Below are positions 1-38,077 of a stretch of DNA of 64,000 bases, piece after piece. The DNA comes from Verrucomicrobiota bacterium. Lineage in GTDB: Bacteria > Verrucomicrobiota > Kiritimatiellia > JAHIZV01. Location: contig JAHIZV010000139.1 in the NCBI GenBank assembly GCA_018814445.1, positions 4,342 to 68,341 of the forward strand, read 5' to 3'. How positions within the stretch are numbered: position 1 is the first letter of the stretch; every line of letters begins with the position of its first letter. The notes beneath the pieces are model-generated. The model saw only the letters and a program-made list of their open reading frames with translations, was not told where the DNA came from and searched no databases. Made by a program: the position numbers and the translations under genes.

Positions 1-339
1 GCAATAGGCGATGGGGTGGCTATTCCGCATGTGCGCAATCCGGTCGTCCTGCATATCCCCTGCCCGATGATCGCACTCTGTTTTCTGGAGAACGCCATCG
101 ACTTTCAGGCGCTGGACGGCAAGCTGGTGCATACCGTTTTCGTTATCGTCAGCCCGACCATCACCGCACATTTGAATCTGCTGTCCCGACTTGCGTTTGC
201 ACTTCGGCAACCTGAATTCACCGACGTCATCACGCGCCCGGCATCCAGAGAGGAGATCATCGCGAGCGCGCAACATATCGATCGCCTCATCGCAAGCCGA
301 AACGCCAACACTGCCGGAGATGGAGGCGACCGCAAATGA
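1..339 (+). CDS. PTS EIIA type-2 (PtsN/EIIA-Ntr-like) domain protein, C-terminal fragment (5' end outside window); stop overlaps the hyfB-like start (ATGA)
   Basis: Has the GVAIPH phospho-His motif of PTS EIIA-2; the frame is open from the window start; stop at 337-339 overlaps ATG 336. Confidence 0.6.
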   Translation, partial: AIGDGVAIPHVRNPVVLHIPCPMIALCFLENAIDFQALDGKLVHTVFVIVSPTITAHLNLLSRLAFALRQPEFTDVITRPASREEIIASAQHIDRLIASRNANTAGDGGDRK

Positions 340-2331
340 TCGGCGTCGAACTCGCGTTGCTGATCCTGATCGCCGGGGCTTTTCTGTGCCTGGCGACGCT
401 CGGACGGCCCGCCTGGGCGCGCGTGGTAGGTCCGACCGTCGCCGTTCTGGGTTGCGCCGCCGGCCTGATTCCCTCTGCCACCGTCCTGATCGGAGCTGCG
501 CCAATCAGCCTGCGCCTGCCCTGGCTCATCCCGCTCGGTTCGCTGTCTCTGGAAATGGACGCGTTATCCGCCGTGTTCGCCGTGCCGATATTGCTGATCA
601 CGGCATTGGCGGCGGTCTATGGCGCGGAGTATCTCCGACCCTATGAAGGGAAGAAAGAAACGTCGGCCTCATGGTTCTTCTTCAATATGCTCACCGCCAG
701 CATGCTGCTCGTGGTTCTGGCGCGCAACGCATTGCTTTTTCTCCTGGCGTGGGAGATCATGTCACTCGCTTCCTTCTTCCTGGTCATGTTCGAGCATGAG
801 AAGGAAAGCGTCCAGCGTGCGGGATGGGTCTACCTCATCGCGACGCATATCGGTACCGCCTTTATCCTGGTGCTGTTTGTCCTGCTGGGCCGCCAGAGCG
901 GAACGCTGGATTTCGTTGGATTCTCTCTGACGCAGGCGGCCCCCGCCCTGGCGGCAACGATCTTCATACTGGCGACGATTGGTTTCGGCACGAAGGCCGG
1001 CTTCATTCCCGTACACGTCTGGCTTCCTGAAGCCCATCCCGCCGCGCCTTCGCATGTGTCGGCAGTTATGAGCGGCGTGATGATCAAGACCGGAGTGTAC
1101 GGGCTTGTTCGCGTGCTGACCTTTCTCGGAACACCACCGTACTGGTTTGGTTGGACGCTCGTCGGCGTCGGCGCCGTATCGGGGATACTCGGTGTGCTGT
1201 TCGCACTCGCGCAGCATGACCTTAAACGCCTGCTCGCCTATTCCAGCGTGGAGAACATCGGGATTATCGCACTGGGCCTGGGCATCGGTCTACTGGGCGT
1301 CAGCTGCGACAGCCCCATCATGGCGACGCTCGGATTCGCGGGAGCCCTTCTGCATGTGATCAATCACGCGATATTCAAGAGCCTGCTCTTTCTCGGCGCG
1401 GGCTCGGTCTTGCATGCCTGCGGGACGCGGGACATGAACCGTCTGGGCGGCCTACTGAGGCGCATGCGTGTGACGGGATTGATCATTCTTGTGGGATCAG
1501 CGGCCATCTGCGGACTTCCACCCCTGAACGGTTTCGTCAGCGAGTTCATGATCTATTTTGGTGCGCTCACCGGACTCGCGACTACGCCCGACGGCGCTAT
1601 GGGGGGGGCTGGCCGCCGCCCTCATCGTCGCAACGGGCTCACTCGCACTGATCGGGGGTTTGGCCGTGGTCTGCTTCACCAAGGCATTCGGCATGGTCTT
1701 CCTCGGCGAACAGCGCAGCGCCCATACCACCCACGCGCACGAGGCGGGGCCCGCCATGCAAGTGCCCATGGCCATTCTGGCAGTACTGTGTGTCGTCATC
1801 GGTCTCTCCGGTCCGCTCCTTTTGCCTCTCATTCAGCCTGCTGTATCGGTCGTGGCGGGCATGTCATCGGGTGTTGCTCTAAATACGGCGTGGATCGGTC
1901 GCGCGCTGTGGATGCTCGCTTCAATCGCAGTCGGAGCAGTGGTCCTGGCGACACTCCTCGCGTTCTTGCGTGCCCGTCTGCTGAGGGGCCGGAGTGTGAA
2001 CACGACCGTCACGTGGGATTGCGGCTACGCCGCGCCATCGCCTCGCATGCAGTACAGCGCTTCCTCCTTCGCGGATCCCGTCACGCGCATGTTCAGGGCA
2101 TTCCTGCGGACAAGCTACCGTCATACGCCGCCATCCGGACTCTTCCCCGAGTCGGCATCCTTCGCAAGCCACACACCCGATGTGCTTCACGATAGGATGT
2201 ATCGACCGGTCTTCTCGCTGCTCGCTAAGTCCCTGGCCCGCTTTCGTTGGCTGCAACACGGTCGCGTCAATCTCTATGTCCTCTACATCATGCTGGCCCT
2301 GCTGGGTCTGCTAGCGTGGAAGCTGATGTGA
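336..2331 (+). CDS. Hyf/Ehr complex subunit B-like (NuoL/MrpA-type antiporter-like membrane subunit); reading frame interrupted by an apparent +1 frameshift in a G8 homopolymer at 1601-1608
   Basis: ORFs 336..2195 and 1558..2331 both carry HyfB/NuoL-like transmembrane sequence; in frame 0 the sequence turns Arg-rich nonsense after codon ~422; deleting one G restores a continuous ~665-aa protein. Confidence 0.7.
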
Positions 2332-2335
2332 AAAG

Positions 2336-3262
2336 ATGAAAACGCTCCTTCTGCATGCATTCATGTTGTTCTCGGGATTAATCGCCGCACCTTTCCTTCT
2401 CGGCGTTATCAACCGTACGAAAGCCCTGTTCGCCGGCCGTAAAGGTGCGCCGCTATTCCAACTTTACTTCGACATGGCTAAACTGCTGCGCAAAGGCGTT
2501 ACGTACAGCCGCACTACAACGTGGATATTCCGGGCGGCGCCGGTGATCGGCCTCTCCGCCGTAATGACAGCCATGACGCTCATGCCGCTCGCACGCATGT
2601 CCGCCCCGCTTTCTTTTCCGGGGGACCTCGTCCTCTTCGCGTATTGCCTCGGACTGATGCGCTTTGTCACGGTCCTCGCCGCGCTGGACACGGGTTCCAG
2701 TTTCGAAGGCATGGGCGCGAGCCGCGAAGTTCAATTTTCGGCCCTCGCCGAACCGGTCCTCATCATCGCGATCGCCGCGCTGGTCTGCGCCGCCGGCTCG
2801 CCTTCGCTGACGGCGATATTCGCGGCCATGACCCGCGCAACATGGCAGGCTCTGGGCCCCGCTCTCGTCCTGATCGTGGCAGCACTGCTGGTGATCTTTC
2901 TGGTCGAGAACGCACGCATTCCTGTCGACGATCCGAATACGCACCTCGAACTCACGATGATTCATGAGGTGATGGTGCTGGATTACTCCGGCCCGGACCT
3001 GGCGTTCATTCTCTATGCGGCGTCACTGAAGCTCTGGGTGCTCGGAACGCTGATCGTGAATATCGCCATCTCCTTCCTGGACCTGCACGGTTTCTTCACA
3101 CCGCTCGCTTTTACTGCAGGCATGTTAGTCCTTGCTGTCCTTGTCGGCATCATCGAGTCGATCATGGCCCGCCTGAGTCTTCTCAAAGTCCCCCGTTTGC
3201 TGATGGGCGCGCTGGTACTGGCGGTGCTGGCGTTTGCTTTCATCGCGAGGTTCACGTCATGA
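2336..3262 (+). CDS. Hyf/Ehr complex subunit C-like (NuoH/HycD family membrane subunit)
   Basis: 308 aa, polytopic, resembles HycD/NuoH; tightly packed after the hyfB-like gene. Confidence 0.7.
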   Translation: MKTLLLHAFMLFSGLIAAPFLLGVINRTKALFAGRKGAPLFQLYFDMAKLLRKGVTYSRTTTWIFRAAPVIGLSAVMTAMTLMPLARMSAPLSFPGDLVLFAYCLGLMRFVTVLAALDTGSSFEGMGASREVQFSALAEPVLIIAIAALVCAAGSPSLTAIFAAMTRATWQALGPALVLIVAALLVIFLVENARIPVDDPNTHLELTMIHEVMVLDYSGPDLAFILYAASLKLWVLGTLIVNIAISFLDLHGFFTPLAFTAGMLVLAVLVGIIESIMARLSLLKVPRLLMGALVLAVLAFAFIARFTS

Positions 3263-3903
3263 CCGCTCTTCAGGATACCGTGCTTGTCCTGCTCGTCCTC
3301 TCCAGCTTCGCCTTGCTGGGAGCCAGCAGGCTGGGCGCGTGTATCCGCTTCGTCGCGCTCCAAGGCATCGTGACGGGTCTGCTTCCTATCGCTGTAAGTG
3401 GACACGGCCCGACTCCGCGCGTTGCCGTGATCGGCGCCACCGTGATCCTCATCAAGGGATTCTTTTTTCCTCACCTTCTAACCCGCGCGATGCGAGAAGC
3501 CCAGACTCGCCGCGAATTACAGCCTTTTGTCGGATACGTGACGTCGCTGGCCTTCGGCGTGCTCGCGCTGATCGGTTCGTTCTGGCTGGATAGCCGACTC
3601 AATCTGCCCATTCATGGAGCGTCTGATCTGGTCGTACCGGTAGCGCTCGCGACGATGATTATCGGTCTGTTTCTTATTGTCAGCCGACGGATTGCCGTCA
3701 GCCAGGTCATCGGTTTCCTCGTGCTCGAAAATGGAATATACGCCTTCGGAGTAGCGATCGTGCGGGATGTGCCCGCACTGATTGAACTGGGTATTCTAAT
3801 GGACGTCTTTGTGGCGGTGTTCGTCATGGGCATCGCCATCTATCACATTAACCGCGAATTTGATCACATCGATACCGATCGACTCACGATGTTGAAGGGC
3901 TGA
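3259..3903 (+). CDS. Hyf/Ehr complex subunit E-like small membrane subunit
   Basis: 214 aa hydrophobic protein, size and position as HyfE; overlaps the upstream stop (ATGA). Confidence 0.6.
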   Translation: MTALQDTVLVLLVLSSFALLGASRLGACIRFVALQGIVTGLLPIAVSGHGPTPRVAVIGATVILIKGFFFPHLLTRAMREAQTRRELQPFVGYVTSLAFGVLALIGSFWLDSRLNLPIHGASDLVVPVALATMIIGLFLIVSRRIAVSQVIGFLVLENGIYAFGVAIVRDVPALIELGILMDVFVAVFVMGIAIYHINREFDHIDTDRLTMLKG

Positions 3904-5388
3904 ATGATGCATACAGGATGGATACTGCCGGCGATGGTCCTGGCGCCGGTGCTGCTCGCCTTGATCAGCCTGCTGCTGCATTCGCCGCGCGCGATTCTGC
4001 GGCTGAGCGCTTTCGGGACGCTAAGCACGGCGGCACTTTCGGGTTTCGCCGTTTGGCGGGTCTTCAGGCAGGGCCCAATGTTCGCCGCCGGTCATTGGTT
4101 CATGCTGGATGCCCTGTCGGCATACCATGTAGCCGTGATGATGACCGTCTTCTCCGTTGCATCCCTCTTCGGTATCAGCTACTTCCGCGAGGAAACAGCC
4201 GACGGACGCTTTGGTCGTCGACAGTCTCGACGCTACGGCAGTCTCTGGTTCGGCTCGCTGGCCGCCATGATGCTCGTCCTTGTTTCAAATAACCTTGGTA
4301 TCATGTGGATTGGCATCGAGGCCACCACCCTGCTGACCGCTTTTCTGATCTGCGTCCACGTGGCGCCGGCCGCGCTTGAGGCTATGTGGAAGTACCTGCT
4401 CATGTGCTCGGTCGGCGTCGCACTCGCGTTCACAGGAACCTTGCTGACGGCGGCATCGGCCGAACACGCCTCGCTGCACGGCACCGACGTACTGCTTTGG
4501 ACCAACCTGCGTGACGCGGCCCAGTTCCTGAATCCCGCCCTGTTGAAAGCCGGCTTCATCTTTCTGGTCGTCGGCTATGGCACGAAGGCGGGCCTTGCTC
4601 CCATGCACAACTGGTTGCCCGACGCGCACAGTCAGGCCCCCGCGCCGGTTTCAGCCATCTTCTCGGGTTTCCTGCTCAACGCGGCTCTGTATTGCATTCT
4701 GCGCTTCCTCCCCCTGGTCGAAGCAGCCACTGGCCATACCGGCTGGGGCCGAAGTATTCTGGTGGTATTCGGTCTGTTGTCGGTTCTTATGGCGTCAGCA
4801 TTCATCGTGACTCAGTGCGACGTGAAACGTCTGCTTGCCTATTCCAGCGTGGAGCATATCGGCGTCATGACACTCGGTTTCGGCATCGGCGGTCTCGGCA
4901 CACTCGCAGCACTCTTTCACATGCTGAGCCACTCACTGTGCAAGACGCTTGCATTCTGCTGTGCGGGACGACTGGGCCAGGTGTTCGGAACGCACGATAT
5001 GCGACGCATAACACGCGTCTTGTCTATCGCGCCAATGTGGGGCGCCGGACTGTTGGGAGGTCTCCTCGTCCTGATCGGCTCCGCTCCTCTGGCCCTGTTT
5101 ACCAGCGAGTTCCTCATCCTCAAGGCAGCCATGGACCGCGGCTCATATGTCGTCGGCGGTCTCTTTCTCGTCGGTCTGGCCGTTGTCTTCGTCGCCGTCC
5201 TCCGCCGCATGATCGCAATGGCATGCAGCCCCGCCGCTGACCGAACATCGCCCTTGCAGACGCACCGCGCTGAATCCCTGCTGATACTCACTTCGTTGAT
5301 CGCGATGCTCGTTCTCGGCCTCTTCTGGCCTCCGCCTCTCATGCGCGCTCTTGCCGCCGCCGCGAACATCCTCGGAGGCGCATTATGA
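3904..5388 (+). CDS. Hyf/Ehr complex subunit F-like (NuoN/NuoM-type antiporter-like)
   Basis: 494 aa; contains the KAGxxPxHxWLPDAH and LLAYSSVEH motifs of complex I antiporter-like subunits. Confidence 0.7.
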   Translation: MMHTGWILPAMVLAPVLLALISLLLHSPRAILRLSAFGTLSTAALSGFAVWRVFRQGPMFAAGHWFMLDALSAYHVAVMMTVFSVASLFGISYFREETADGRFGRRQSRRYGSLWFGSLAAMMLVLVSNNLGIMWIGIEATTLLTAFLICVHVAPAALEAMWKYLLMCSVGVALAFTGTLLTAASAEHASLHGTDVLLWTNLRDAAQFLNPALLKAGFIFLVVGYGTKAGLAPMHNWLPDAHSQAPAPVSAIFSGFLLNAALYCILRFLPLVEAATGHTGWGRSILVVFGLLSVLMASAFIVTQCDVKRLLAYSSVEHIGVMTLGFGIGGLGTLAALFHMLSHSLCKTLAFCCAGRLGQVFGTHDMRRITRVLSIAPMWGAGLLGGLLVLIGSAPLALFTSEFLILKAAMDRGSYVVGGLFLVGLAVVFVAVLRRMIAMACSPAADRTSPLQTHRAESLLILTSLIAMLVLGLFWPPPLMRALAAAANILGGAL

Positions 5389-6887
5389 CCATCGACCGCA
5401 CCCTCCCCAATGGCGGCAGCATCCCGCTTGACTCGACACCCGATCTCGCCGCACCCGAGTTCCGCCGCCGAGTCCTGGAGGGCGTGACGAACGGCGCTCG
5501 AATCGCCGCTCTCTTCGGTTGCCCGGAAGGCGACTCCGTGCGTCTCTTTTCAATTCTCGCATGGGAGGACACAGGATTGCTGTCGGTCCTTTCCACTACA
5601 GTCAAAGACCGCTATCCGTCGTTGACGCCGGATTGCCCGCAGGCACATCTTTTCGAGCGCGAACTCGCCGAGCAGTGGAGGATCACACCCGAAGGCCATC
5701 CGTGGCTCAAACCGGTTCGGTTCCAAACACCCATGCGCGGCAAATCCAACGAGCCTCTGCCCACCCAGTGCGGAGTCGCGGATTTCTTTCAAATGACCGG
5801 TGAAGAGGTCCACGAAGTGGCCGTCGGGCCCGTGCATGCCGGCATCATTGAGCCGGGCCATTTCCGCTTTCAGTGCCATGGCGAGACAGTTCACCACTTG
5901 GAAATATCCCTTGGCTATCAACACCGCGGCATAGAAAAGGCGCTGGCCGGAGGTCCCGACAAAAGAACGCTGCACTACATGGAGACACTTGCCGGCGATA
6001 CGACCATTGGCCACACAACGGCCTATTGTCGAACGATCGAGGCACTGACCAAATCCCGTGTCCCAGCGCGCGCACAGGTCGTTCGAGGCATCGCTCTCGA
6101 ACTTGAACGCATAGCAAATCACATCGGGGATCTCGGCGCCCTTGCCGGCGACATTGGATTTCTGCCGACCATGTCCTATTGCGGGCGGATTCGCGGCGAT
6201 GTGCTTAATCTGACCGCGCTGCTTTGCGGCAACCGTTTCGGCCGCCGACTCATCGAACCCGGAGGAACAGGCTACGATTTGACCGAAGACAGCCTGGCGC
6301 AACTTCGAGACCGGTTGAAGACCGCCATAACGGATGCCGAACAGGCGATCAGTCTCTTGTGGAAGACGCCATCCGTCCTGGCACGGTTTGAAGGCGCGGG
6401 CCCGATCAGCCGTAAGACCGCCGAGGAAATAGGACTGGTCGGCGTCTCCGCGCGCGCCTGTGGCCTGGAACGGGATGTCCGTCGCGATTTCCCCTACGGC
6501 ATCTTCCAGATGGCTCACATCCCGATCGTCACATGGCACACCGGCGATGTGTTTGCCCGCGCCTTCGTCCGCTGGCTGGAGATTGAGCGCTCCGCCATGT
6601 TCATCCTCGACCAGTTAGAATCTCTCCCCGCACGACCTCCGGCTGCGCCCTTCACCAGACAGATGTCCTCGCGGCATCTCGCCCTGGCCCTGGTAGAAGG
6701 CTGGCGCGGCGAAATCTGCCATGTGGCCGTCACAAATGAGGCCGGCCGGTTCGCATGCTATAAGATCGTGGATCCATCGTTCCATAATTGGTTCGGCCTT
6801 GCGCTCGCGCTGCGGGAGCAGCAGATATCCGATTTCCCGCTCTGCAACAAGAGCTTCAATCTCTCCTATTGCGGTCACGATCTGTAG
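5385..6887 (+). CDS. NuoC-NuoD fused, group-4 [NiFe]-hydrogenase large-subunit homologue lacking all four Ni-Fe cysteine ligands (Ehr-type, non-hydrogenase)
   Basis: N-terminal 30-kDa/NuoC-like region followed by HycE-like VGPVHAGIIEPGHFRF; the RxCGxCxxxH site reads LAGDTTIGHTTAY and the C-terminal DPCxxC reads DPSFHNW. Confidence 0.75.
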   Translation: MTIDRTLPNGGSIPLDSTPDLAAPEFRRRVLEGVTNGARIAALFGCPEGDSVRLFSILAWEDTGLLSVLSTTVKDRYPSLTPDCPQAHLFERELAEQWRITPEGHPWLKPVRFQTPMRGKSNEPLPTQCGVADFFQMTGEEVHEVAVGPVHAGIIEPGHFRFQCHGETVHHLEISLGYQHRGIEKALAGGPDKRTLHYMETLAGDTTIGHTTAYCRTIEALTKSRVPARAQVVRGIALELERIANHIGDLGALAGDIGFLPTMSYCGRIRGDVLNLTALLCGNRFGRRLIEPGGTGYDLTEDSLAQLRDRLKTAITDAEQAISLLWKTPSVLARFEGAGPISRKTAEEIGLVGVSARACGLERDVRRDFPYGIFQMAHIPIVTWHTGDVFARAFVRWLEIERSAMFILDQLESLPARPPAAPFTRQMSSRHLALALVEGWRGEICHVAVTNEAGRFACYKIVDPSFHNWFGLALALREQQISDFPLCNKSFNLSYCGHDL

Positions 6888-6898
6888 AGGAACACCCG

Positions 6899-7669
6899 AT
6901 GATCGAGATACTCAAAGTCAGACTGAAACAGGGATGCAGGACTATGTCCTATCCGGCGGGTCCAGCACCGGAAATGCCCCCGCATTTTACAGGCAGGCCG
7001 GTCATCCACCCAGAATCCTGCGGCGAAGACTGCCGCGAATGCATAGAGGTATGCCCTTCCGATGCGATCAGTGTGACCGGATCAGAAGTGCGGATCGATA
7101 CCGGCCGGTGTATCTTCTGCGCAAAGTGTCGTCAGGTATGTCCTGAACAGATTATTGACTTCAGTCCCGATTTCCGGCTCGCTGCGGCTCGACGCGAAGA
7201 CCTCGTTCTGGGTTCCGGCGACGACCCCGTCCCATCCGCATCCAGCGCCGTGGCGAAGAAGCTCTTCGGCCGATCCCTCAAACTCCGGCAGGTTAGCGCC
7301 GGAGGTTGCAACGCCTGTGAGGCGGACACCAATGTACTCAACACACTCGCGTGGGATCTCGGACGTTTCGGCATTCAGTTCGTGGCCTCTCCACGCCATG
7401 CCGACGGCCTTCTCGTCACCGGACCGGTCACAAACCACATGGAACTCGCCTTGAAGAAGACCTACGAGGCGCTGCCCGACCCGAAAATCGTCATCGCCGT
7501 TGGAGCCTGCGCCGCCTCGGGCGGAATCTTTCGCACACACCCGGAGTCGAGCAAAGTCCTCGCCGATATCATCCCCGTCGACTTGTTCATCCCGGGGTGT
7601 CCACCCCATCCGGCCACAATACTCGACGGGTTGCTGCGGTTGGTCGGCCGAATAGATGAGAAAGAGTAG
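6899..7669 (+). CDS. Fused 2x[4Fe-4S] ferredoxin (HycF/NuoI-like) and NuoB/HycG-like small subunit
   Basis: Two CxxCxxCxxxCP motifs followed by GGCNACE...GACAASGGIF...GCPPHP; start chosen at ATG 6899 with AGGAAC RBS (ORF track allows 6788). Confidence 0.7.
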   Translation: MIEILKVRLKQGCRTMSYPAGPAPEMPPHFTGRPVIHPESCGEDCRECIEVCPSDAISVTGSEVRIDTGRCIFCAKCRQVCPEQIIDFSPDFRLAAARREDLVLGSGDDPVPSASSAVAKKLFGRSLKLRQVSAGGCNACEADTNVLNTLAWDLGRFGIQFVASPRHADGLLVTGPVTNHMELALKKTYEALPDPKIVIAVGACAASGGIFRTHPESSKVLADIIPVDLFIPGCPPHPATILDGLLRLVGRIDEKE

Positions 7670-7768
7670 GTCTCGCGGCTGGCCCGCATGTTGCACCGGC
7701 GTGTGTCGATCCGCGAAGCATACGCTCAGATACCCATGACCTCCGGGCTTGATCTCGGTCTTGTGGAA

Positions 7769-8209
7769 TCAGGTCGCGATCTTATCGATGGCTTTACTGA
7801 TCGCATGCCATGACATGGTCGCACATTTGATCCTGAGCGGATAGCGGCGGACGCCCTCCAGAGAGGCCATGTCGCCCAACTCCGCCAGGTCTGAATCCTT
7901 CTCGCCGCGCATCACGGCCACGAAATCGGCGATGATCTGCCTGGCCTCGTCCACGGGCTTGCCAACGACCGCTTCGGCCATCATCGACGCCGATGCCATG
8001 CTGATGGCGCAGCCGTGGCCATCGTAGCGGATATCTTTGACTACACCGTCGGCAACCACGGCCGTCATCCGGATCTGGTCGCCGCACGTCGGATTATACT
8101 CGTCCACCAGAACTTCGTCGTCATTCAGTTCAGAGAAGTGGCGCGGGTTCTTGAAGTGATCAAGGATGATCTCCTGGTAGAGTTCATCCATATCTGCATT
8201 GCTGCTCAT
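7769..8209 (-). CDS. sufU: SUF Fe-S cluster assembly scaffold SufU (NifU/IscU-like)
   Basis: 146 aa with conserved Cys/His (CGD...GHGC...C); directly downstream of sufS. Confidence 0.75.
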   Translation of the reverse strand: MSSNADMDELYQEIILDHFKNPRHFSELNDDEVLVDEYNPTCGDQIRMTAVVADGVVKDIRYDGHGCAISMASASMMAEAVVGKPVDEARQIIADFVAVMRGEKDSDLAELGDMASLEGVRRYPLRIKCATMSWHAISKAIDKIAT

Positions 8210-9474
8210 ACCTTAAAGAAATCCTTTGCTTTTCCAATCGCGTAGACCAACTGGTCAACGTCCTCTTCCACGTTATACAGATACACGCTCGCCCGGCTCA
8301 CGGCGCCGACTCCTAACCGCTTCATCAACGGTTGAGCGCACATATGTCCGGCCCGTATTGCGACGCCCTCACGGTCGACAAGCTGCGAAAGATCATGTGG
8401 ATGAATGCCGGCCACTTCAAACGAAATCGCCCCGCCCCGCTCGGGCGCCTTGCCGAATATCTTAATGCCCTCTATCGCCGAAAGTTTTTCGATGGTGTAC
8501 GCCGTCAACCGCCGATCGTGTTCGAGAATCTTGTCCATACCCAGGTTCGCCAGGAAGTCGACGGCCACACCCAATCCAACAGCCCCGGAGATGTTGGGTG
8601 TTCCCGCCTCGAATTTGTGAGGAACCTCCGCCCAGGTCGCGTCATCAAGACTAACGCGATTGATCATCTCTCCTCCACCCATGAAAGGATCCATGTCCTC
8701 CAGAAGCTCGCGTCTTGCATAAAGAGCGCCTATGCCTGTCGGCGCGCACATCTTGTGACCGGAGAAAGCAAAGAAATCCACTCCCAGGTCCTGCACGTCA
8801 ATCGGCATATGGGGAGCGCTTTGCGCTCCGTCCACCAGCACTCGCGCCCCCGCAGCCCGAGCGGCGTCCGCAAGTTCCTTGACAGGATTAATGGTTCCCA
8901 GCACGTTCGACATATGCGTTACGGCGAACAGTTTCACCTTTGAAGACAGGCTTCTATGAAAAGCCTCGATATCAAGGGATCCGTCGTCGAGCACAGGAAC
9001 GTAGACGAGTTTCGCCCCTTTTTCCCGCGCGAGAATCTGCCAGGGGATGATGTTGCTGTGGTGCTCCATTTCCGTGAGCAGAATCACGTCGCCCTCTTCT
9101 ATGAACTTCCTCCCCCACGCATAAGCAACGAGATTGATACTTTCTGTCGTGCCGCGCGTGAAGACTACAGACTCCTCCTGCCCGGCGCCAATGAAGCGCG
9201 CCACTTTCCTGCGCGATTCGTCATATTGCTCCGTCGCCCTTTCCGCGAGTTCATGCAGGGCGCGATGCACGTTTGAATTACAGAATTCATAGTACTCGCA
9301 AAGGGCGCATATGACCGGTTGCGGCTTCTGTGTCGTCGCCGCGTTGTCGAGATAGGCGAGGCGCTTGTCCCCGTGAATCTTCTGGGCCAGTATGGGAAAC
9401 TGAAACCGCAGCATGGCCGGATCAAAACCAGGCCCGCGGAGGATGTCGTCCCCTGTGACAGGCGTCGTGGTCAT
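8206..9474 (-). CDS. sufS: Cysteine desulfurase SufS
   Basis: 422 aa class-V aminotransferase with SGHKMCAPTG PLP-Lys motif and C-terminal catalytic Cys region. Confidence 0.85.
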   Translation of the reverse strand: MTTTPVTGDDILRGPGFDPAMLRFQFPILAQKIHGDKRLAYLDNAATTQKPQPVICALCEYYEFCNSNVHRALHELAERATEQYDESRRKVARFIGAGQEESVVFTRGTTESINLVAYAWGRKFIEEGDVILLTEMEHHSNIIPWQILAREKGAKLVYVPVLDDGSLDIEAFHRSLSSKVKLFAVTHMSNVLGTINPVKELADAARAAGARVLVDGAQSAPHMPIDVQDLGVDFFAFSGHKMCAPTGIGALYARRELLEDMDPFMGGGEMINRVSLDDATWAEVPHKFEAGTPNISGAVGLGVAVDFLANLGMDKILEHDRRLTAYTIEKLSAIEGIKIFGKAPERGGAISFEVAGIHPHDLSQLVDREGVAIRAGHMCAQPLMKRLGVGAVSRASVYLYNVEEDVDQLVYAIGKAKDFFKV

Positions 9475-9491
9475 AGACGCCCTGCCCGTTT

Positions 9492-9526
9492 GGTGTTCGA
9501 TGTTCCATGTTCGATGTTCGATGTTC
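9492..9526. repeat. TTCGATG-family heptamer tandem repeat upstream of sufS
   Basis: gtgttcgatgttccatgttcgatgttcgatgttc. Confidence 0.8.
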
Positions 9527-9529
9527 TTC

Positions 9530-9856
9530 TCACGCTTTCACCAGAATCTTCTCGCCTTCGATTTTCACTTTGAACGTCGGGATCGGCTTTGTGGCCGGCA
9601 GACTCAACTGTTGACCGTTTCGAATATCAAAACGCGCGCCGTGAAACGGACAGGTCAACTCACATCCTGCCAGATCGCCGCTGATCAGAGACATTCGCTG
9701 ATGACTGCACCAGGCGCTCACTGCGTGAAACTGACCATCGACCTTGAAAAGCCCAATCTGCTTCTCTCCGCCCAGATCCACCAGCTTCCGATCCGTTTCC
9801 TCAAACTCGCCGACCGTGGCGACCTCATGCCACTCCTTGCTGTCAAACAGTCCCAT
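9530..9856 (-). CDS. Rieske [2Fe-2S] ferredoxin-like protein embedded in the suf operon
   Basis: CSH...CPFHG Rieske ligand pairs; 108 aa. Confidence 0.7.
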   Translation of the reverse strand: MGLFDSKEWHEVATVGEFEETDRKLVDLGGEKQIGLFKVDGQFHAVSAWCSHQRMSLISGDLAGCELTCPFHGARFDIRNGQQLSLPATKPIPTFKVKIEGEKILVKA

Positions 9857-9892
9857 CGTTATCTCCTGCTCCCTTTTTCCCTCGCTGCGAAG

Positions 9893-11200
9893 CTACCCTC
9901 TCTCCTGCACGTACGCATGCACCCGGTCACGAATAAACTCGTAGGGTATTCTTTGCGCGACCTCGTCGTAAAATCCGTTAATCACGACCTTGCGGGCCTC
10001 ATCCTGGCTGATTCCGCGCGAGCGAAGGTAAAACAACTGGTCTTCGTCAAGATTCCCTATCGTTGCTCCGTGACTGCACTTCAGGTCATCCGCATCAATC
10101 AGCAGACCCGGGATCGTGTCGGCTCTCGCCGAATCGCTCAGAACAAGATTGTTGTTCGTCTGATACGCATCGACTTTCACCGCTCCCGGCTTCGCGACGA
10201 TAATGCCCTGGTACACGGAGTGACTCTCGTCATTCACCGCTCCCTTGTACAGAAGCCGACTGTACGTATTCGGCGACGAGTGTATCTGCAAGGTCTTCTG
10301 GTCTACGTGCTGTTCGCCGTGCGTGAAGAACAGGCCGTCCAGTTCAGCCGCGGAGCCCTCGCCCGCAACATCACACGCGATTCGGGCTTTGACCAGGCGA
10401 GAACCGAAATTGAGCCCGATCCACTCAATGGTCGCGTTTCTTTCGACGCGGGCCCAGTCGTTGGCAAGATGCGCGCTCTGATCGTTCAGCTCCTGCAGGC
10501 TGATCACCTTCAGGACAGCACCATCTTCCACATACATTTCCTTCGTCGAGACACAGATCACCGCGCTGTCCGGACTGTTCCCGGTGCATTCGACTACGGT
10601 AGCGGACGACTGCGCACCGGATGAAAGGACCAGGCGAGGGACAAATGCCCCCGCTTCCGACTCGACGTCGCAACGCACCAGAATACCCCTCTCCAAGACC
10701 ACGTTGGGCTCTATCCGGACCAGCAACCCGAAATTCCAGAACGCGGAATTGAGCGCTTCGAACTTCCCGGCTTCCTCTCCGATCGCTTTGCCGTCAAGAT
10801 ACTGTGCCATCAATCCAGGCTCCTGTTCAGCAGCTTCGGAAAGACCCATCACTTTGACTTTGCCATCGGCAAGAAGTCCCGAGGCATCCTGTACGCCGAA
10901 GCCGTCCGCCGACACGCTCACCACGATGTCGAACAGGCTGTCATTGGGTCCCGCGACATATTTTCCTGCGGGAATGACGGGCAGAAGCTGCACTTTATCG
11001 AACGGGAACATCTGCGGGCTCGTGCGGCGCCACTCCTCATCCACTGCCCTGGGAGCGGGCAGGCCGAGGTAGCGCTCAAAAGCCTTCTGCCTTGCGGCGA
11101 TGGAGGCTTCCGCGTCGGTCAGTACCAGTTGCTCGAAAGCCCCGGCATCAAACCCGGGAATGTTCTCTTCTCGTTTCTCTGCTTCCATTTGCGTGTTCAT
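9893..11200 (-). CDS. sufD: Fe-S cluster assembly protein SufD
   Basis: 435 aa SufB/D family protein, positioned after sufB. Confidence 0.8.
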   Translation of the reverse strand: MNTQMEAEKREENIPGFDAGAFEQLVLTDAEASIAARQKAFERYLGLPAPRAVDEEWRRTSPQMFPFDKVQLLPVIPAGKYVAGPNDSLFDIVVSVSADGFGVQDASGLLADGKVKVMGLSEAAEQEPGLMAQYLDGKAIGEEAGKFEALNSAFWNFGLLVRIEPNVVLERGILVRCDVESEAGAFVPRLVLSSGAQSSATVVECTGNSPDSAVICVSTKEMYVEDGAVLKVISLQELNDQSAHLANDWARVERNATIEWIGLNFGSRLVKARIACDVAGEGSAAELDGLFFTHGEQHVDQKTLQIHSSPNTYSRLLYKGAVNDESHSVYQGIIVAKPGAVKVDAYQTNNNLVLSDSARADTIPGLLIDADDLKCSHGATIGNLDEDQLFYLRSRGISQDEARKVVINGFYDEVAQRIPYEFIRDRVHAYVQERG

Positions 11201-11228
11201 AACTCACAATCCAATCCACAATCCAAAA

Positions 11229-12677
11229 TCATCCGATGCTTCCCTCAAGTTTAATTTCCAGCAGTTTCGTGGCTTCGACCGCGAATTCCAGGGGAAGCTT
11301 CTTGAATACGTCCTTGCAGAACCCGTTGACCACGAGATTGATCGCGCTCTCTTCATCAATGCCGCGGCTCTTGATGTAGAACAGTTGATCCTCGCTGATC
11401 TTGGAAGTCGTGGCCTCGTGCTCGATAATCGCCGTGCTGTCTTCCGCTTCGATATACGGCACTGTATTCGCACTGCATTTGTCTCCGACCAACATGGAGT
11501 CGCAGATCGAGTAGTTTCTGCATCCCTTCGCACCCGGAACAACCTGAACAAGACCCCGATATGTATTAACGGACTCGTCACACGATATCCCTTTGGAGAC
11601 GATCGTACTCTTCGTGTTGTTGCCGACATGAATCATCTTCGTCCCGGTATCGGCCTGCATCCGGTTGTTGGTCACGGCCACGGAGTAGAATTCACCGGTG
11701 GAGCCGTCGCCCTCAAGGATACAGCTCGGGTACTTCCACGTGATCGCCGCACCCGCTTCCACCTGAGTCCAGGAGATTTTCGATTTCCTGCCCCGGCAGT
11801 GACCGCGCTTGGTCACAAAGTTGTAGATGCCGCCCCGGCCCTTTTCATCACCCGCGTACCAGTTCTGAATGGTCGCGTACTTGATCTCCGCGTTGTCCAT
11901 CGCGATCAATTCGACCACGGCGGCGTGCAGTTGGTTGGTGTCGCGCATCGGAGCCGTGCAGCCTTCGAGGTAGGACACGTAGGCGCCTTCGTCCGCGATA
12001 ATCAGCGTGCGCTCAAACTGCCCCGTGTCCTGCGCGTTAATACGAAAGTAGGTCGAGAGTTCAACCGGACATTTCACGCCCTTCGGAACGTAGACGAAGG
12101 ATCCATCCGTAAATACCGCAGAGTTCAGCGAGGCAAAGTAGTTGTCGGTGTGCGGGACTACCGCCCCCATGTACTTCTTGATCAGATCAGGATGCTTGAT
12201 AATCGCTTCTGAAATCGGACAGAAGATAATGCCCATCTCCTCGAGCATTTCCTGATGGGATGTAGCCACTGACACACTGTCAAAGACGGCATCGACAGCG
12301 ACACCCTCCAGGCGCTTCGCTTCACCGAGCGGAATGCCTAGTCGCTCAAAGGTCTTCGAAATCTCCGGGTCTATCTCCCCGTCTTCATTCTTGAAGCGGT
12401 CAATCATCTTCTTTGGAGCCGAGTAGTAGCGGATGTCCTGATAGTCGATCTCCGGATAGTCCAGCAACGCCCATCGCGGCTCTTTCCTTGTCGTCCACCA
12501 TCTGTACGCCTTCAAACGCCACTCAAGCATCCACTCCGGCTCATTCTTCTTGGCCGAAATAAAGCGAATGATATCTTCATTCAGCCCCTTCGGAGCCTCA
12601 TCAGCTTCGATGTCAGTAACGAAGCCGTACTTGTACTCGCCGGAGGCAAATGTCTCTTTTGTTTCAATTTCACTCAT
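11229..12677 (-). CDS. sufB: Fe-S cluster assembly protein SufB
   Basis: 482 aa, strong SufB-like sequence throughout. Confidence 0.9.
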
Positions 12678-12709
12678 ATACCTGACCTCTGACTTCTGCC
12701 TTCTCTCCC

Positions 12710-13498
12710 CTAACCAACCAGTACTTCATGGCCGAATTTCTCGCGCACCCAGTCGTAGCCCTTTTCCTCAAGTTCTTTGACCAGCTCACGGCCGCCCGTC
12801 ATGACGATCCTTCCATCGATCAGAATATGGATGTGGTCGGGGTGGATATAGCGGAGGATGCGCTCGTAATGGGTAATGACGAGGACGCTGAATTCAGGGC
12901 CGACCAGTCTGTTCACACCCTTCGAGACGACCTTGAGCGCATCGATATCCAGGCCGGAATCGGTCTCGTCCATGACGGCCAGGCCCGGCTTCAGCGTGAG
13001 CATCTGCAGGATCTCCATGCGTTTCTTCTCGCCACCCGAGAACCCGTCGTTCAGATAACGATTCACAAAGGTCTCATCCATCTCGAGGTACTTCATATTA
13101 TCGCGCAGTTCCTTAAGGAACTCGGTCGGCTTAACCTTCCCGCCTTCGCCGGCAATCGCATCAACCGCGCTTTTCAGAAACTTCGCGACGGTTACGCCCG
13201 GGATGGCCACGGGGTACTGAAAGGCCAGAAATAGCCCAAGGATCGCGCGCTCTTCGGGGTCCATTTCGAGGATATTCTCTCCCTTGAAGAAAATCTCACC
13301 CGCAGTCACTTCATAGGAGGGATGCCCCATAATCACACAGGCAAGAGTACTCTTGCCGGAACCGTTGGGTCCCATCAGCGCGTGCACTTCGCCCTTGTTG
13401 ATAGTCAGGTTCAAACCCTTAAGAATCAGCTTATCCTCCACGTTAGCGTGAAGGTTCTTGATCTGAAAATACGGCATCTCACTCATAGTTCTTCTCAT
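12710..13498 (-). CDS. sufC: Fe-S cluster assembly ATPase SufC
   Basis: Walker [13 protein letters not shown] signature and Walker B; precise start ambiguous (13498, 13486 or 13477). Confidence 0.9.
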
Positions 13499-34159: not shown

Positions 34160-35863
<1,704 letters not shown>

Positions 35864-35882
35864 GTCGCTTCGCTCCATTCAT

Positions 35883-35958: not shown

Positions 35959-36009
35959 CCGCCCCGGGCGGAAAAGTGGTCGTGCACCCTTGTTCGTCCG
36001 ATCGATCAA

Positions 36010-36140
36010 AAACCGACGATCCCTGTTCAGACTCTGACCAGGTAGACCTACGGCACCCGAATATCATGACTTACCGCTGCTACCTTCCGGTCCTGACGGG
36101 GTTCACCAGCACTCGTCGCATAGGGCCCAGTCGTCAACGC
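36010..36140 (-). ncRNA. ffs: Signal recognition particle RNA (4.5S/ffs-like), approximate ends
   Basis: Minus-strand GUGCUGGUGAACCCCGUCAGGACCGGAAGGUAGCAGCGG matches the conserved SRP RNA domain-IV motif; canonical position upstream of dnaX; U-run at ~36008-36014. Confidence 0.6.
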
Positions 36141-36293
36141 CATTCCAGGAGGCCGATCCAGAATCTCACAGCCTCACGCGGGAATTAAACCCTGCTATAG
36201 CGGGTTGCAGGTCTTCCGCCAAGGCGGAATCAGGGCACCGCTACCTCCCCGTCTAGCACGACCAAGGGAGAGCCTACCCTCGGAGGGCAGGCA

Positions 36294-37164: not shown

Positions 37165-37357
37165 CGGCGAAGCCGCTAGAGCGGGAATGGGAGAAAGGGA
37201 GAGCAGGCGAATGGGAGCCCGAAGATGCCCGCCATACCCATTCAACCATTAACCATCGACCATGGTGCAGTCGGCGTACATGGGGATGATTTCTTCCGAT
37301 ATTGGAAGTTGAGAGTTCGATGTTCGTTGTTCGATGTTTCGCGGTCGACGGCCGCGG

Positions 37358-38077
37358 CTACAGCCCCTTAATCACGCTTTCCTCTGCCCTGCGGATCGCG
37401 TCGTAGAGTTCCGCCGGATCATCGCTCTCCCGAAGCTTCACCAGCAGATCCGTGTTGTGGCACATCATGCAAAGACGGGCCAGAACGTGGAGATGTATCT
37501 TGTCGTCCTGACAGCAGATGAGAAAGAAAATGTCGGTCGTCCTGCCGTCGGGCGCGCCGAATGGAAGAGCCTGAATCGTGCGCCCCAGAACCACAAACGA
37601 GTCCTCGAAGGTGTACGGATCGTGGTGCCGCGGATGCAGCATAGCCACTCCTCCCTCCAGGGCAGTCGAGTACAGCGCCTCGCGGTCCCGCAAACCTGCC
37701 AGCAGATCTTCCGGATGGATCAGAAGATCCGTTTTCGCCGCAAGGTCAGACATCGCGCGCAGAAGAGCTGGCTTGGTCCGTGACACGATCTGTGGATCAA
37801 TAAATTGCGGCTGCATCAGTTCGGTGACAATGGCTGCGTCGCGGGAGAGGTTATGCACCTTCGCCGAGGTCACCTTGTGGTAGTCCGTGAGATCCCTCTC
37901 AGAGAACCCCATAATGCGTTGAGACGCCCACGCATCCAGCTCGCGCTTTCGGAAAACCACACGGTCCCCCATCCGTTCAAACGGAATTTCCCCTCGTTTG
38001 ACAAGTTGCTCGATGTCGACGGACTTGACGTGCAAGTACTCCGCCGCCGAATCTACGCTGAACATTTGATGTGGCAT
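37358..38077 (-). CDS. Excisionase/MerR-type HTH plus PTS EIIA type-2 (PtsN-like) domain protein
   Basis: N-terminal AEYLHVKSVDIEQLVKRGEIP HTH; C-terminal GGVAMLHPRH EIIA-2 phospho-His motif. Confidence 0.6.
   Translation of the reverse strand: MPHQMFSVDSAAEYLHVKSVDIEQLVKRGEIPFERMGDRVVFRKRELDAWASQRIMGFSERDLTDYHKVTSAKVHNLSRDAAIVTELMQPQFIDPQIVSRTKPALLRAMSDLAAKTDLLIHPEDLLAGLRDREALYSTALEGGVAMLHPRHHDPYTFEDSFVVLGRTIQALPFGAPDGRTTDIFFLICCQDDKIHLHVLARLCMMCHNTDLLVKLRESDDPAELYDAIRRAEESVIKGL

Follow-up and report, generated by a model that had tools for sequence, protein, structure and literature searches.

Gene content of the locus

The window, which is the whole 64,000-nucleotide stretch of DNA analysed here, opens with the 3' end of a gene, here called the regulator gene, whose stop codon runs into the start of an Ehr-type operon. 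Six genes, ehrA, ehrB, ehrC, ehrD, ehrL and ehrS, follow on the same strand, and a complete gene related to the cut one lies further along on the opposite strand. The features are as follows.

1-339, plus strand: 3' end of the regulator gene, 112 codons and a stop, encoding an Ntr/Mtl/Fru-type EIIA domain minus its N-terminal third
28-30, plus strand: putative phosphorylated His codon in the motif GVAIPH, aligned to His73 of E. coli PtsN (PDB 1A6J)
169-171, plus strand: second conserved active-site His codon in TAHLNLL, aligned to His120 of E. coli PtsN (1A6J)
322-339, plus strand: translational-coupling junction, made up of a Shine-Dalgarno GGAGG within the regulator ORF (322-326) and the ATGA at 336-339
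336-2195, plus strand: ehrA, NuoL/HyfB-like antiporter-type membrane subunit, 619 aa (Pfam Proton_antipo_M, E=1e-54)
2336-3262, plus strand: ehrB, NuoH-like membrane subunit, 308 aa (Pfam NADHdh, E=2e-28)
3259-3903, plus strand: ehrC, HyfE/NuoK-like membrane subunit, 214 aa (Pfam Oxidored_q2, E=1e-5, a weak match)
3904-5388, plus strand: ehrD, HyfF/NuoM/N-like antiporter-type subunit, 494 aa (Pfam Proton_antipo_M, E=1e-47)
5385-6887, plus strand: ehrL, NuoC-NuoD/HycE-like large subunit, 500 aa (Pfam Complex1_49kDa and Complex1_30kDa)
6899-7669, plus strand: ehrS, fusion of a HyfH/NuoI-like 2x[4Fe-4S] ferredoxin with a NuoB/HyfI-like subunit, 256 aa (Pfam Fer4 families and Oxidored_q6)
37358-38077, minus strand: second HTH_17-EIIA_2 protein, complete, 239 aa (Pfam HTH_17 and PTS_EIIA_2)

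The cut gene is free of stops in frame 1 across positions 1-339 and reads AIGDGVAIPHVRNP...GDRK before its stop codon. It matches Pfam PTS_EIIA_2 (PF00359) with 59.7 bits (E=4.1e-16; gathering score 27 bits), and since the match covers profile positions 54-139 of 144, about the first third of the EIIA domain lies off the window. The initial annotation had proposed that the gene encodes an EIIA(Ntr-like) domain whose phospho-histidine site is intact, and both the Pfam match and the GVAIPH motif bear this out. Against the PtsN equivalog model TIGR01419, the fragment scores 35.8 bits and full-length orthologues 58.4 and 67.0 bits (cut-off 138.7), and with NF008145 the scores are 50-56 bits (cut-off 221). 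A search with the fragment found no match above 66% identity. Exact-protein look-ups with EhrA, EhrB, SufU, the 37358-38077 paralogue and its identical copy P0055 returned only short Logan contigs of SRR2540949 or no match, yielding no 5' extension of the window; contigs from SRR2540949 match parts of the window exactly. Homology leads us to infer that the off-window part begins with a winged HTH (about 50 aa), continues through a linker and ends in the first section of the EIIA domain.

At the junction, the regulator TGA (337-339) overlaps the ehrA ATG (336-338), and the GGAGG ends 9 nt 5' of that ATG. The ATGA overlap at 336-339, from which translational coupling of the EIIA gene to the Ehr-type operon had been proposed, is thus confirmed. 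In 106 orthologous loci, a median of 2 bp separates the regulator stop from the ehrA start; the gap is at most 30 bp in 93, and 36 have an identical 4-bp stop/start overlap.

The downstream genes combine NuoL-, NuoH-, HyfE- and HyfF-like subunits with a NuoB-like subunit in one operon, as identified by Pfam and NCBIfam, and the group-4-hydrogenase-like large subunit is cysteine-less in its alignment to 7Z0S; these are the features that define an Ehr complex. In that alignment of EhrL with E. coli HycE (7Z0S), 'vCGiCgfaH' stands opposite 'lagdttigH' and 'DPCysC' opposite 'NLSyCG', which leaves EhrL with at most one of the four [NiFe] cysteines. The Cys ligands are likewise replaced in the alignment of EhrL with Nqo4 (2FUG). 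The top NCBIfam match of ehrA is hydrogenase 4 subunit B, under that model's cut-off. EhrS scores 117.4 bits against the NCBIfam NuoB subfamily (cut-off 116), with its Cys motifs visible, and the position and order of ehrC are kept in 79 loci.

The link between regulator and complex is conserved from both directions. Starting from the EIIA domain, the regulator is immediately followed by ehrA, B, C, D, L and S, in this order, in 79 of the best 80 loci, the exception having just 219 bp of downstream sequence. Starting from EhrL, the regulator is present in 33 of 36 informative metagenome loci; it is missing from the near-identical loci L144 and L154, and L145 holds a remnant alone. Loss of this linkage in relatives, which the initial annotation had named as a refutation, was therefore not what these genome and metagenome loci revealed. 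The orthologous loci have no further conserved neighbour around the module, including candidate genes for an Ehr electron donor, and apparent insertions of the L078 type are additional HyfB-like copies. Across many phyla, the regulator sits directly ahead of the Ehr operon and probably switches it.

Architecture of the HTH-EIIA proteins

All 108 distinct full-length orthologues of the cut gene carry an excisionase/MerR-like winged HTH followed by an EIIA domain. They measure 215-275 aa, typically about 235 aa, and derive from MAGs labelled as at least 10 phyla; Fontivita pretiosa B-254 carries an orthologue. The nearest ones, with 55-67% identity to the fragment, all pair HTH_17 with EIIA_2, and HTH and EIIA occur together in about 74 of the best 80 genome loci. 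Pfam scores for L005, L008 and L078 are 57-61 bits for HTH_17 and 78-84 bits for EIIA_2, and orthologues reach 40-44 bits with the excise model TIGR01764 (cut-off 28.8). In the first three relatives found, the HTH lies 5' of the EIIA domain and is split from it by assembly frameshifts. The presence of the HTH in every intact orthologue indicates that the first gene of the window shares the architecture of the 37358-38077 protein. Seemingly stand-alone PtsN matches of 137-190 aa proved to be cut by contig ends or frameshifts. None of the orthologues has a membrane domain, which rules out a transporter with an EIIA tail, the other refutation that had been named.

An AF2 model (pLDDT 85) places the winged HTH at residues 1-50, a low-confidence linker at 55-72 and the EIIA domain at 73-225. 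Its top PDB folds are the PtsN structures 3URR, 1A6J, 4GQX and 2A0J, and in Foldseek searches the EIIA domain also matches the cytoplasmic domains of band 3/AE anion exchangers. The HTH domain has weak matches to RacA, a MerR regulator and a phage Xis; sequence comparison of the HTH found no link to BldC itself. The PH pair of the GVAIPH motif is at least 98% conserved in the 108 orthologues, and the second active-site His (AHL) is invariant in alignments A2 and A3. Across both paralogue families, the phospho-His, the second His and the Arg-Glu active-site pair are at least 98% conserved.

The second protein, which the initial annotation had described as an excisionase-type HTH fused to an EIIA-2 domain, is exactly that: HTH_17 (PF12728) scores 36.4 bits over residues 6-54 (cut-off 27), PTS_EIIA_2 71.3 bits over residues 87-229, and the TIGR01764 excise domain 40.6 bits (cut-off 28.8). 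The domain matches at both loci are beyond chance. With about 30% identity to the 1-339 fragment over 64 aa, this protein is a distant paralogue, unlinked to Ehr. At least 704 homologues share its architecture; among 120 of these, the phospho-His is conserved in 98% or more. The identical copy (P0055, 100%) lies on a 73-kb NCBI MAG contig. No conserved partner gene emerged: the gene upstream of the paralogue is not homologous to that in L087, and contexts vary. An ARAGORN 'tRNA' call at 37256-37349 was discarded as it is without Rfam support. HTH_17-EIIA proteins as a whole fall into 7,000 or more clusters (90% identity). Their public annotation, 'PTS sugar transporter subunit IIA', is misleading.

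Promoter repeat and phosphotransfer context

A tandem repeat, TGTCC-N5-TGTCCAA, lies 5' of the regulator at -10/+1 of a TTGACA-N17 promoter. A relaxed motif search up to 150 bp upstream found it in 59 of 78 loci (55 sense and 4 antisense), with 44 of the 55 sense copies positioned 50-59 nt before the start codon; the background is 0.0006 per 150 bp (11 matches in about 3 Mb). The L008 promoter illustrates the geometry: it reads TTGACA-17-TATATT (11/12 match), and the first repeat begins at the last T of the -10 element. Such a conserved operator-like repeat in the regulator's own promoter points to transcriptional control. BldC, a MerR/Xis-like winged-HTH protein, is known to bind direct repeats head-to-tail (PMC5859096).

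The repeat is seen only where the HTH has canonical recognition residues. It occurs in 60 of 74 canonical-HTH loci versus 0 of 34 variant-HTH loci (Fisher p=3.6e-17, kinship ignored), and one variant-HTH clade has TACGT-N5-TAC[GA]T tandems instead. By single-linkage clustering, 22 of 48 clusters at 75% identity and 2 of 18 at 65% contain the repeat. About a quarter of the canonical loci, and every divergent clade, lack the TGTCC motif or show a degenerate form of it. A search of the rest of the window for TGTCC tandems that might mark a regulon found none.

Searches of the window for EI and HPr (tblastn queries EI from E. coli and HPr from E. coli and B. subtilis; a regular expression for the HPr active site) found none. 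The same approach around the module, by tblastn and the HPr expression, detected a single EI among about 160 loci; at this locus (L074), the enzyme I gene adjoins the regulator in divergent orientation. Since EI and HPr go undetected in the window and, one locus apart, beside the module, the case for phosphorylation rests on site conservation. The EIIA domain probably receives phosphate from HPr or NPr. The suggested link to the nitrogen PTS is unproven, as ptsP, ptsO and hprK were not found in the window. Regulatory EI in the absence of PTS transporters has been reported in Planctomycetes, Chlamydiales and Chlorobia (PMC2405797).

Regulatory model and its meaning

Together, these observations favour a reading to which we assign a probability of about 0.68: the cut ORF would be the C-terminus of a roughly 235-aa, autoregulated one-component transcription factor for Ehr, with phospho-His-controlled DNA binding. 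The protein is expected to start with a winged HTH (HTH_17), joined by a flexible linker to a C-terminal EIIA of the Ntr/Mtl/Fru type bearing the phospho-histidine site. Two or more HTH domains would bind the TGTCC-N5-TGTCCAA repeat, with its 10-bp period, head-to-tail. In the sigma70-type promoter of the module (TTGACA-N17-TAnnnT), the repeat extends from about -7 to +10, which suggests that the regulator autoregulates the operon, most simply by repression given this position. The phosphorylation state of the EIIA His may alter DNA binding or oligomerisation. That state could be set by EI and HPr/NPr of a regulatory PTS free of sugar transporters, reporting the PEP:pyruvate (carbon/energy) status, and expression of the ion-translocating, hydrogenase-like Ehr complex would thereby be tied to metabolic state. 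The regulator, as first cistron, and ehrABCDLS form a seven-gene module that probably moves between phyla as a unit. We infer DNA binding, phosphorylation and the sign of control from sequence features.

The evidence weighs differently on the alternatives. The initial annotation had envisaged a stand-alone PtsN-like EIIA acting by protein-protein binding; in its present form, such a protein would bind Ehr subunits and gate ion pumping by phosphorylation, with the HTH absent here or secondary. The domain's top sequence and fold matches are indeed PtsN proteins, and the conserved translational coupling to ehrA, including the ATGA, is what co-produced partners would display. Yet the HTH is present in 108 of 108 intact orthologues, always N-terminal and excisionase-type, the operator-like promoter repeat covaries with it, and orthologues score 58-67 bits on the PtsN equivalog model, far under its cut-off of 138.7. 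The stand-alone form is thus unsupported and the gating idea quite unlikely, though the protein may have a dual role. A further alternative keeps a DNA-binding ehr regulator but takes the EIIA domain out of the PTS, as an unphosphorylated module for dimerisation or for sensing a small molecule or protein. EIIA_2-like folds are reused outside the PTS, as the Foldseek matches to band 3/AE illustrate, and EI, HPr and NPr genes are absent from the window and from 115 of 116 related loci. Active-site conservation of at least 98% over large distances is nevertheless hard to explain without catalysis, and enzyme I does adjoin the regulator in L074; we consider an unphosphorylated domain unlikely, though worth keeping in view.

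It is uncommon for a regulator to be so tightly coupled to a membrane subunit, and the arrangement may point to a stoichiometric role instead. A third alternative makes the protein a structural or assembly subunit of Ehr, with the repeats bound by an unrelated host factor or by no protein at all. As a first cistron, tightly coupled, it nearly always accompanies the complex, as a subunit should. However, the module occurs in at least 10 phyla without another conserved neighbour, so the host factor would need to be universal; the repeat also changes along with the HTH, and HTH_17 is a DNA-binding fold. This explanation is highly improbable.

Comparison with known systems places the proposed transcription factor between several families. 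Known PtsN proteins control transporters and kinases by binding them, and we know of no characterised EIIA-Ntr protein that acts other than through protein-protein contacts. A review mentions no DNA-binding form (PMC13104625). The regulator's EIIA domain shares the fold of the four PtsN structures named above (TM 0.71-0.79, target-normalised; top sequence match E=5e-13) and keeps the phospho-His and second His. Unlike PtsN, typically a single-domain protein of about 150-165 aa, it is fused to an N-terminal winged HTH, has DNA binding as its predicted output in place of protein-protein regulation, and occurs mostly outside Proteobacteria. Its setting also differs from the rpoN-hpf-ptsN-rapZ-npr neighbourhood, judged by the next gene, which is ehrA here as it is in 79 of 80 orthologous loci.

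The closest analogues in mode of action are the PRD regulators of the BglG family (MtlR, LicR, ManR and LevR), DNA binders set by PTS phosphorylation, as is predicted here, whose EIIA(Mtl/Fru)-like domain also falls in this Pfam family. Unlike them, the regulator is without a PRD, an EIIB-like domain or an AAA+/sigma54 module; Pfam scans of the paralogue and three full-length orthologues found only HTH-type and PTS_EIIA_2 families and no PRD. It also has an excisionase/MerR-like HTH, measures about 235 aa versus 600-900 aa, and its targets are not sugar-utilisation genes. Its small winged HTH belongs to the superfamily of BldC, Xis and RacA, and the tandem 10-bp repeat fits the head-to-tail multimers of BldC (PMC5859096). 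Unlike those proteins, which have no sensor domain, it adds an EIIA domain, and its DNA binding is predicted.

On the Ehr side, gene order and subunit types match those of Geobacter sulfurreducens ehrA-S (GSU0739-0745; ehrA-1, B, C, D, L, S), and the large subunit is without [NiFe] cysteines as in other Ehr complexes. HyfR and FhlA, which regulate the E. coli hyf and hyc (formate hydrogenlyase) operons, are formate-responsive enhancer-binding proteins of the sigma54 type. Like them, the proposed factor is a dedicated transcription regulator tied to a Hyf-like membrane complex, but it has no sequence or domain relationship to them. Published accounts of Ehr describe its physiological role as unknown and name no dedicated regulator (PMC10284858, PMC6349859, PMC7894505), unlike the module here, which includes one. 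The abundance of Ehr proteins in Geobacter varies with the electron donor (PMC7894505). A full-text literature search, incomplete in coverage so that an earlier mention is possible, found no report tying EIIA/HTH proteins to Ehr.

More tentatively, at somewhat less than even odds, HTH_17-EIIA proteins may constitute a large unstudied one-component class through which a transporter-free PTS acts on DNA, with one subfamily serving as a dedicated, co-transferred Ehr switch. The phyla concerned include PVC bacteria, Desulfobacterota and Acidobacteriota, among others. In PTS terms, an EIIA(Ntr-like) domain would here be acting through its own contact with DNA and not with target proteins; the proteins that carry it are found in phyla where the PTS is considered to have regulatory functions only. 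Ehr complexes are widespread and related to complex I and the group 4 hydrogenases; if the class reading is true, they would be PEP/pyruvate-responsive energy-conserving machines whose inducing condition could be read from the regulator. An operon-borne regulator with a predicted operator and signal would offer a handle on when and why cells make Ehr.

The truncated gene that opens the Ehr operon

The window opens inside a gene whose reading frame is continuous in frame 1 from the first base to a TGA at 337-339, and its translation reads AIGDGVAIPHVRNPVVLHIP...ASRNANTAGDGGDRK. Pfam aligns this product with positions 54-139 of the 144-position PTS_EIIA_2 model (59.7 bits, E=4e-16); since the match begins at model position 54, the window begins inside the EIIA domain. 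The stop codon shares an ATGA with the start of ehrA, as read directly from the sequence, and a GGAGG lies 9 nt before the ehrA ATG. The six genes that follow have the same order as Geobacter ehrA-1, B, C, D, L and S.

Features of the regulator and Ehr genes
1-339, +: 3' end of the regulator gene
28-30, +: codon of the histidine in GVAIPH, cut gene
169-171, +: codon of a second conserved histidine, in TAHLNLL, cut gene
336-339, +: ATGA stop/start overlap of the cut gene and ehrA
336-2195, +: ehrA, HyfB/NuoL-like, 619 aa
2336-3262, +: ehrB, NuoH-like
3259-3903, +: ehrC, HyfE/NuoK-like
3904-5388, +: ehrD, HyfF-like
5385-6887, +: ehrL, NuoCD/HycE-like large subunit
6899-7669, +: ehrS, 2x[4Fe-4S] ferredoxin fused to a NuoB-like small subunit

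Aligned with E. coli HycE (PDB 7Z0S), ehrL places AGDT opposite CGIC and NLSYCG opposite DPCYSC, and it has no aligned equivalent of Nqo4 Tyr87; these replaced residues, as judged from the alignment, are what defines an Ehr complex. A 140-bp gap (2196-2335) separates ehrA from the presumed ehrB ATG, and at the other junctions the genes overlap or lie almost end to end. The gap may hold the real ehrB start or a small element. Convergent to the Ehr operon is a suf-type Fe-S cluster assembly operon (7769-13498, -) comprising SufC, SufB, SufD, Rieske, SufS and NifU_N/SufU (the last at 7769-8209, -). Its 108-aa Rieske [2Fe-2S] protein (9530-9856, -) is unusually placed. The suf neighbourhood is not kept beside Ehr in the other loci.

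A search with the 112-residue fragment recovered 54 relatives of up to 66% identity that resemble short stand-alone EIIA proteins; two of them (P0054 and P0022) carry an HTH or an HTH tail before the EIIA domain. In three long contigs, "stand-alone" gene calls are frameshift artefacts: an HTH ORF encoding M-x-L-x-V-R-x-x-A-x-LL-x-VSEKTIYRWI...QYRFNRAELLEWAT runs into the EIIA ORF. The fragment and its relatives were aligned, and when a set with one genome for each species was scanned with this alignment, at least 591 loci matched; the best 80 were kept. In these, record titles name Verrucomicrobiota, Planctomycetota, Lentisphaerota, Kiritimatiellia, Desulfobacterota, Acidobacteriota, Myxococcota, Binatia, Methylomirabilota, Fermentibacteria, Spirochaetota and others, with a single isolate, Fontivita pretiosa B-254. 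An ORF of 226-285 aa with an HTH is present in about 74 of the 80, the rest being cut by contig ends or frameshifts.

Genome and metagenome loci together provide 108 different full-length orthologues. In the three scanned with Pfam, it finds HTH_17 and PTS_EIIA_2 and no other type of domain. Full-length orthologues exceed the cut-off of the NCBIfam "excisionase family DNA-binding" domain and score 58-67 bits against the NCBIfam PtsN equivalog models, whose cut-off is 138.7. An AlphaFold model of a Kiritimatiellia orthologue (mean pLDDT 85) consists of a winged HTH (1-50), a low-confidence linker (55-72) and an EIIA fold (73-225). Its nearest solved structures are PtsN proteins, and structure and sequence comparison of this orthologue found no solved structure with both domains. 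EIIA-Ntr (PtsN) thus resembles the sensor domain in fold and best match, but score, architecture and gene context place the regulator outside PtsN. The idea of a stand-alone PtsN is therefore abandoned, since the relatives have an HTH; judging from those of 55-67% identity, the window's own copy almost certainly begins with one too. Some loci have two HTH-EIIA genes before the Ehr genes: L082 (2084-2794 and 4643-5344), L134 and L146, the latter two with two EIIA matches each. In L082 the second copy has diverged strongly, with EIIA_2 at just 29.7 bits.

Linkage to Ehr and a candidate operator

In 79 of 80 genome loci the regulator is followed by all six Ehr genes, co-oriented with it and in unchanged order; the sole exception has just 219 bp of downstream sequence. 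In the reverse test, the Ehr large subunit was searched against metagenome contigs, and the regulator is present in 33 of the 36 loci that extend far enough upstream, with a detectable HTH in 32. The linkage asserted by the initial annotation is thus kept in related genomes. The remaining loci are rare losses: in the near-identical L144 and L154, roughly 1 kb with few ORFs precedes ehrA, and L145 retains a decayed remnant at 150-233, a stop-riddled HTH piece (GQYRFNRSDLIEWA). Clustering of all ORFs in the genome loci reveals no other conserved gene around the seven-gene module, which forms a unit of its own and has passed from phylum to phylum. The median distance from regulator stop to ehrA start is 2 bp; it is at most 30 bp in 93 of 106 loci, 36 of which show the ATGA overlap seen in the window. 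An extra HyfB/NuoL-like copy stands between the regulator and the remaining operon in L078 (10368-14398, Fontivita pretiosa), L019, L126, L129, L137 and L146, recalling the ehrA-1 and ehrA-2 of Geobacter.

Regions upstream of the regulator cannot be aligned between phyla, save for three elements: TTGACA; about 17 bp on, an A/T-rich hexamer ending in T; and, starting at that last T, a tandem direct repeat, TGTCC-N5-TGTCCAA (anchored consensus CTTGACAtttgtGg.CAT...t...A..aTGTCCaaAgaTGTCCAAag). Within 150 bp upstream of the regulator, the relaxed pattern TG[TA]CN-N5-TGTC[CT] occurs in 55 of 78 loci, starting 50-59 nt before the start codon in 44 of them, and on the opposite strand in four further loci. 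The remaining ~3 Mb yields 11 matches on both strands, a background of 0.0006 per 150 bp. Most "negative" loci with a canonical HTH hold one-mismatch versions. In L008, which is closely related to the window, a promoter scan finds TTGACA-17-TATATT (11/12) with repeat 1 beginning at the final T of the -10, so the repeats would span roughly -7 to +10. The window contains no TGTCC tandem site because the module's promoter lies before base 1.

The motif accompanies the canonical HTH, defined by SE[KR]T[IVL]YRW and Q[YH]RF residues: 60 of 74 such loci have it, against 0 of 34 with a variant HTH (Fisher p=3.6e-17, uncorrected for shared ancestry). Single-linkage clustering finds it in 22 of 48 clusters at 75% identity and 2 of 18 at 65%, so the Fisher statistic makes the loci look more independent than they are; better evidence comes from the footprint shared by promoters that otherwise cannot be aligned. 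That the repeats are tandem and not inverted suits the winged HTH superfamily, as the MerR/Xis-like BldC binds direct repeats as head-to-tail multimers (PMC5859096), and the orthologue HTH shows weak sequence matches to RacA, a MerR regulator and a phage Xis. Three loci with a variant HTH (...TPPKQIYRW...DQPRF...; L129, L134, L146) carry TACGT-N5-TAC[GA]T tandems instead of TGTCC, after a TTGAC box and about 60-100 bp before the regulator start; this clade may have switched operator specificity.

Putative phosphorylation site and proposed mode of control

In the orthologues, conservation is at least 98% or complete for the equivalents of E. coli PtsN His73 and His120 and for the preceding A-R-E and S-T motifs, and the histidine is likewise conserved in the unlinked paralogue family. 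This conservation argues for a working phosphoryl-acceptor site. No gene for EI, HPr or NPr was found in the 64-kb window, or beside the module in all but one of about 116 informative loci. There, in L074 (a Thermoanaerobaculia MAG), a complete 638-aa Enzyme I with PEP-utilisers_N, mobile and C domains (7515-9431, -) diverges from the regulator, which starts near 9623. "Regulatory" Enzyme I is described from Planctomycetes, Chlamydiales and Chlorobia, which lack PTS transporters (PMC2405797), which makes a phosphorelay feeding the regulator plausible by analogy.

We propose that the cut gene encodes an autoregulated one-component transcription factor heading the ehr operon. Its HTH domains would bind the tandem repeat, covering the point where transcription from a near-consensus sigma70 promoter begins, and repression would be the simplest sign of control, judged by the position of the repeat. 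The phosphorylation state of the EIIA histidine would alter DNA binding or multimerisation and would itself be set by a regulatory PTS reporting PEP:pyruvate status, making synthesis of the Ehr complex dependent on metabolic state. In Geobacter, Ehr protein abundance varies with condition (PMC7894505), which is consistent with a regulated operon and silent on the present regulator.

Other arrangements appear less probable. The EIIA domain could be a sensor that is not phosphorylated; the scarcity of neighbouring PTS genes would suit this and the conserved active site would not, and we consider it unlikely. Somewhat less likely still is direct protein-protein control of Ehr, the model of the initial annotation, possibly as a second function: translational coupling would accord with it, and the HTH and upstream repeat point to DNA. 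The same coupling would also suit a structural subunit of Ehr, a role that the DNA-binding fold of the HTH, and the change of the upstream repeat along with the HTH, make very improbable.

The second HTH-EIIA protein and relation to known regulators

The window also encodes a complete protein in which Pfam matches HTH_17 (residues 6-54) and PTS_EIIA_2 (residues 87-229), so the fusion proposed at first sight is borne out; translation and Pfam agree with the initial annotation in every particular, here and at 1-339.

Features around the second protein
34160-35878: dnaX, followed by ybaB-like and recR-like ORFs
35980-36261, -: bacterial large-type SRP RNA upstream of dnaX (Rfam RF01854, 136 bits, full length)
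37358-38077, -: HTH_17-EIIA_2 protein

An ARAGORN call between surE and this gene (37256-37349, +; 94 nt, "tRNA-???", four-base anticodon gatt) has no Rfam support at the gathering threshold and is probably a false positive.

The second protein is 100% identical to P0055, from an NCBI "Verrucomicrobia bacterium" MAG, and belongs to a family that numbers at least 704 proteins, about 239 aa long and alike in architecture, from Verrucomicrobia, Kiritimatiellae, Lentisphaerae and Opitutae. It shares about 30% identity over 64 residues with the Ehr-linked fragment, and one Kiritimatiellia MAG holds both types on separate contigs (L008, L087). Its neighbours vary, with a convergent surE in the window and two other loci, and no PTS genes adjoin it in the window or the compared loci. 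Reading it as a likely PTS-controlled DNA binder, as was done earlier, makes sense. In two Verrucomicrobia MAGs (L089/L090, 4375-7824), a 1149-aa PPi-dependent PEP carboxykinase-like gene (PF26300) precedes a paralogue-type gene, which could hint at a PEP-related regulon or be coincidence.

The whole HTH_17-EIIA class comprises at least 7,086 clusters at 90% identity (E below 1e-20), and databases label its members "PTS sugar transporter subunit IIA" or "nitrogen PTS system EIIA component". Functionally, the Ehr-linked regulator comes closest to the PRD-type regulators (MtlR, LicR, ManR), in which a DNA-binding domain is likewise combined with an EIIA(Mtl/Fru)-like phosphorylation domain; unlike them, it has no PRD or EIIB domains, uses another HTH and is one third their size. 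The literature searched in full text mentions neither a DNA-binding EIIA nor any Ehr regulator, although the Ehr papers (Marreiros 2013, Coppi) may contain an earlier passing mention; a 2026 PTS-Ntr review mentions neither. We would place the regulator among the PTS-controlled transcription regulators. Its main value is that it offers an experimentally approachable switch tied to a complex of unknown function.
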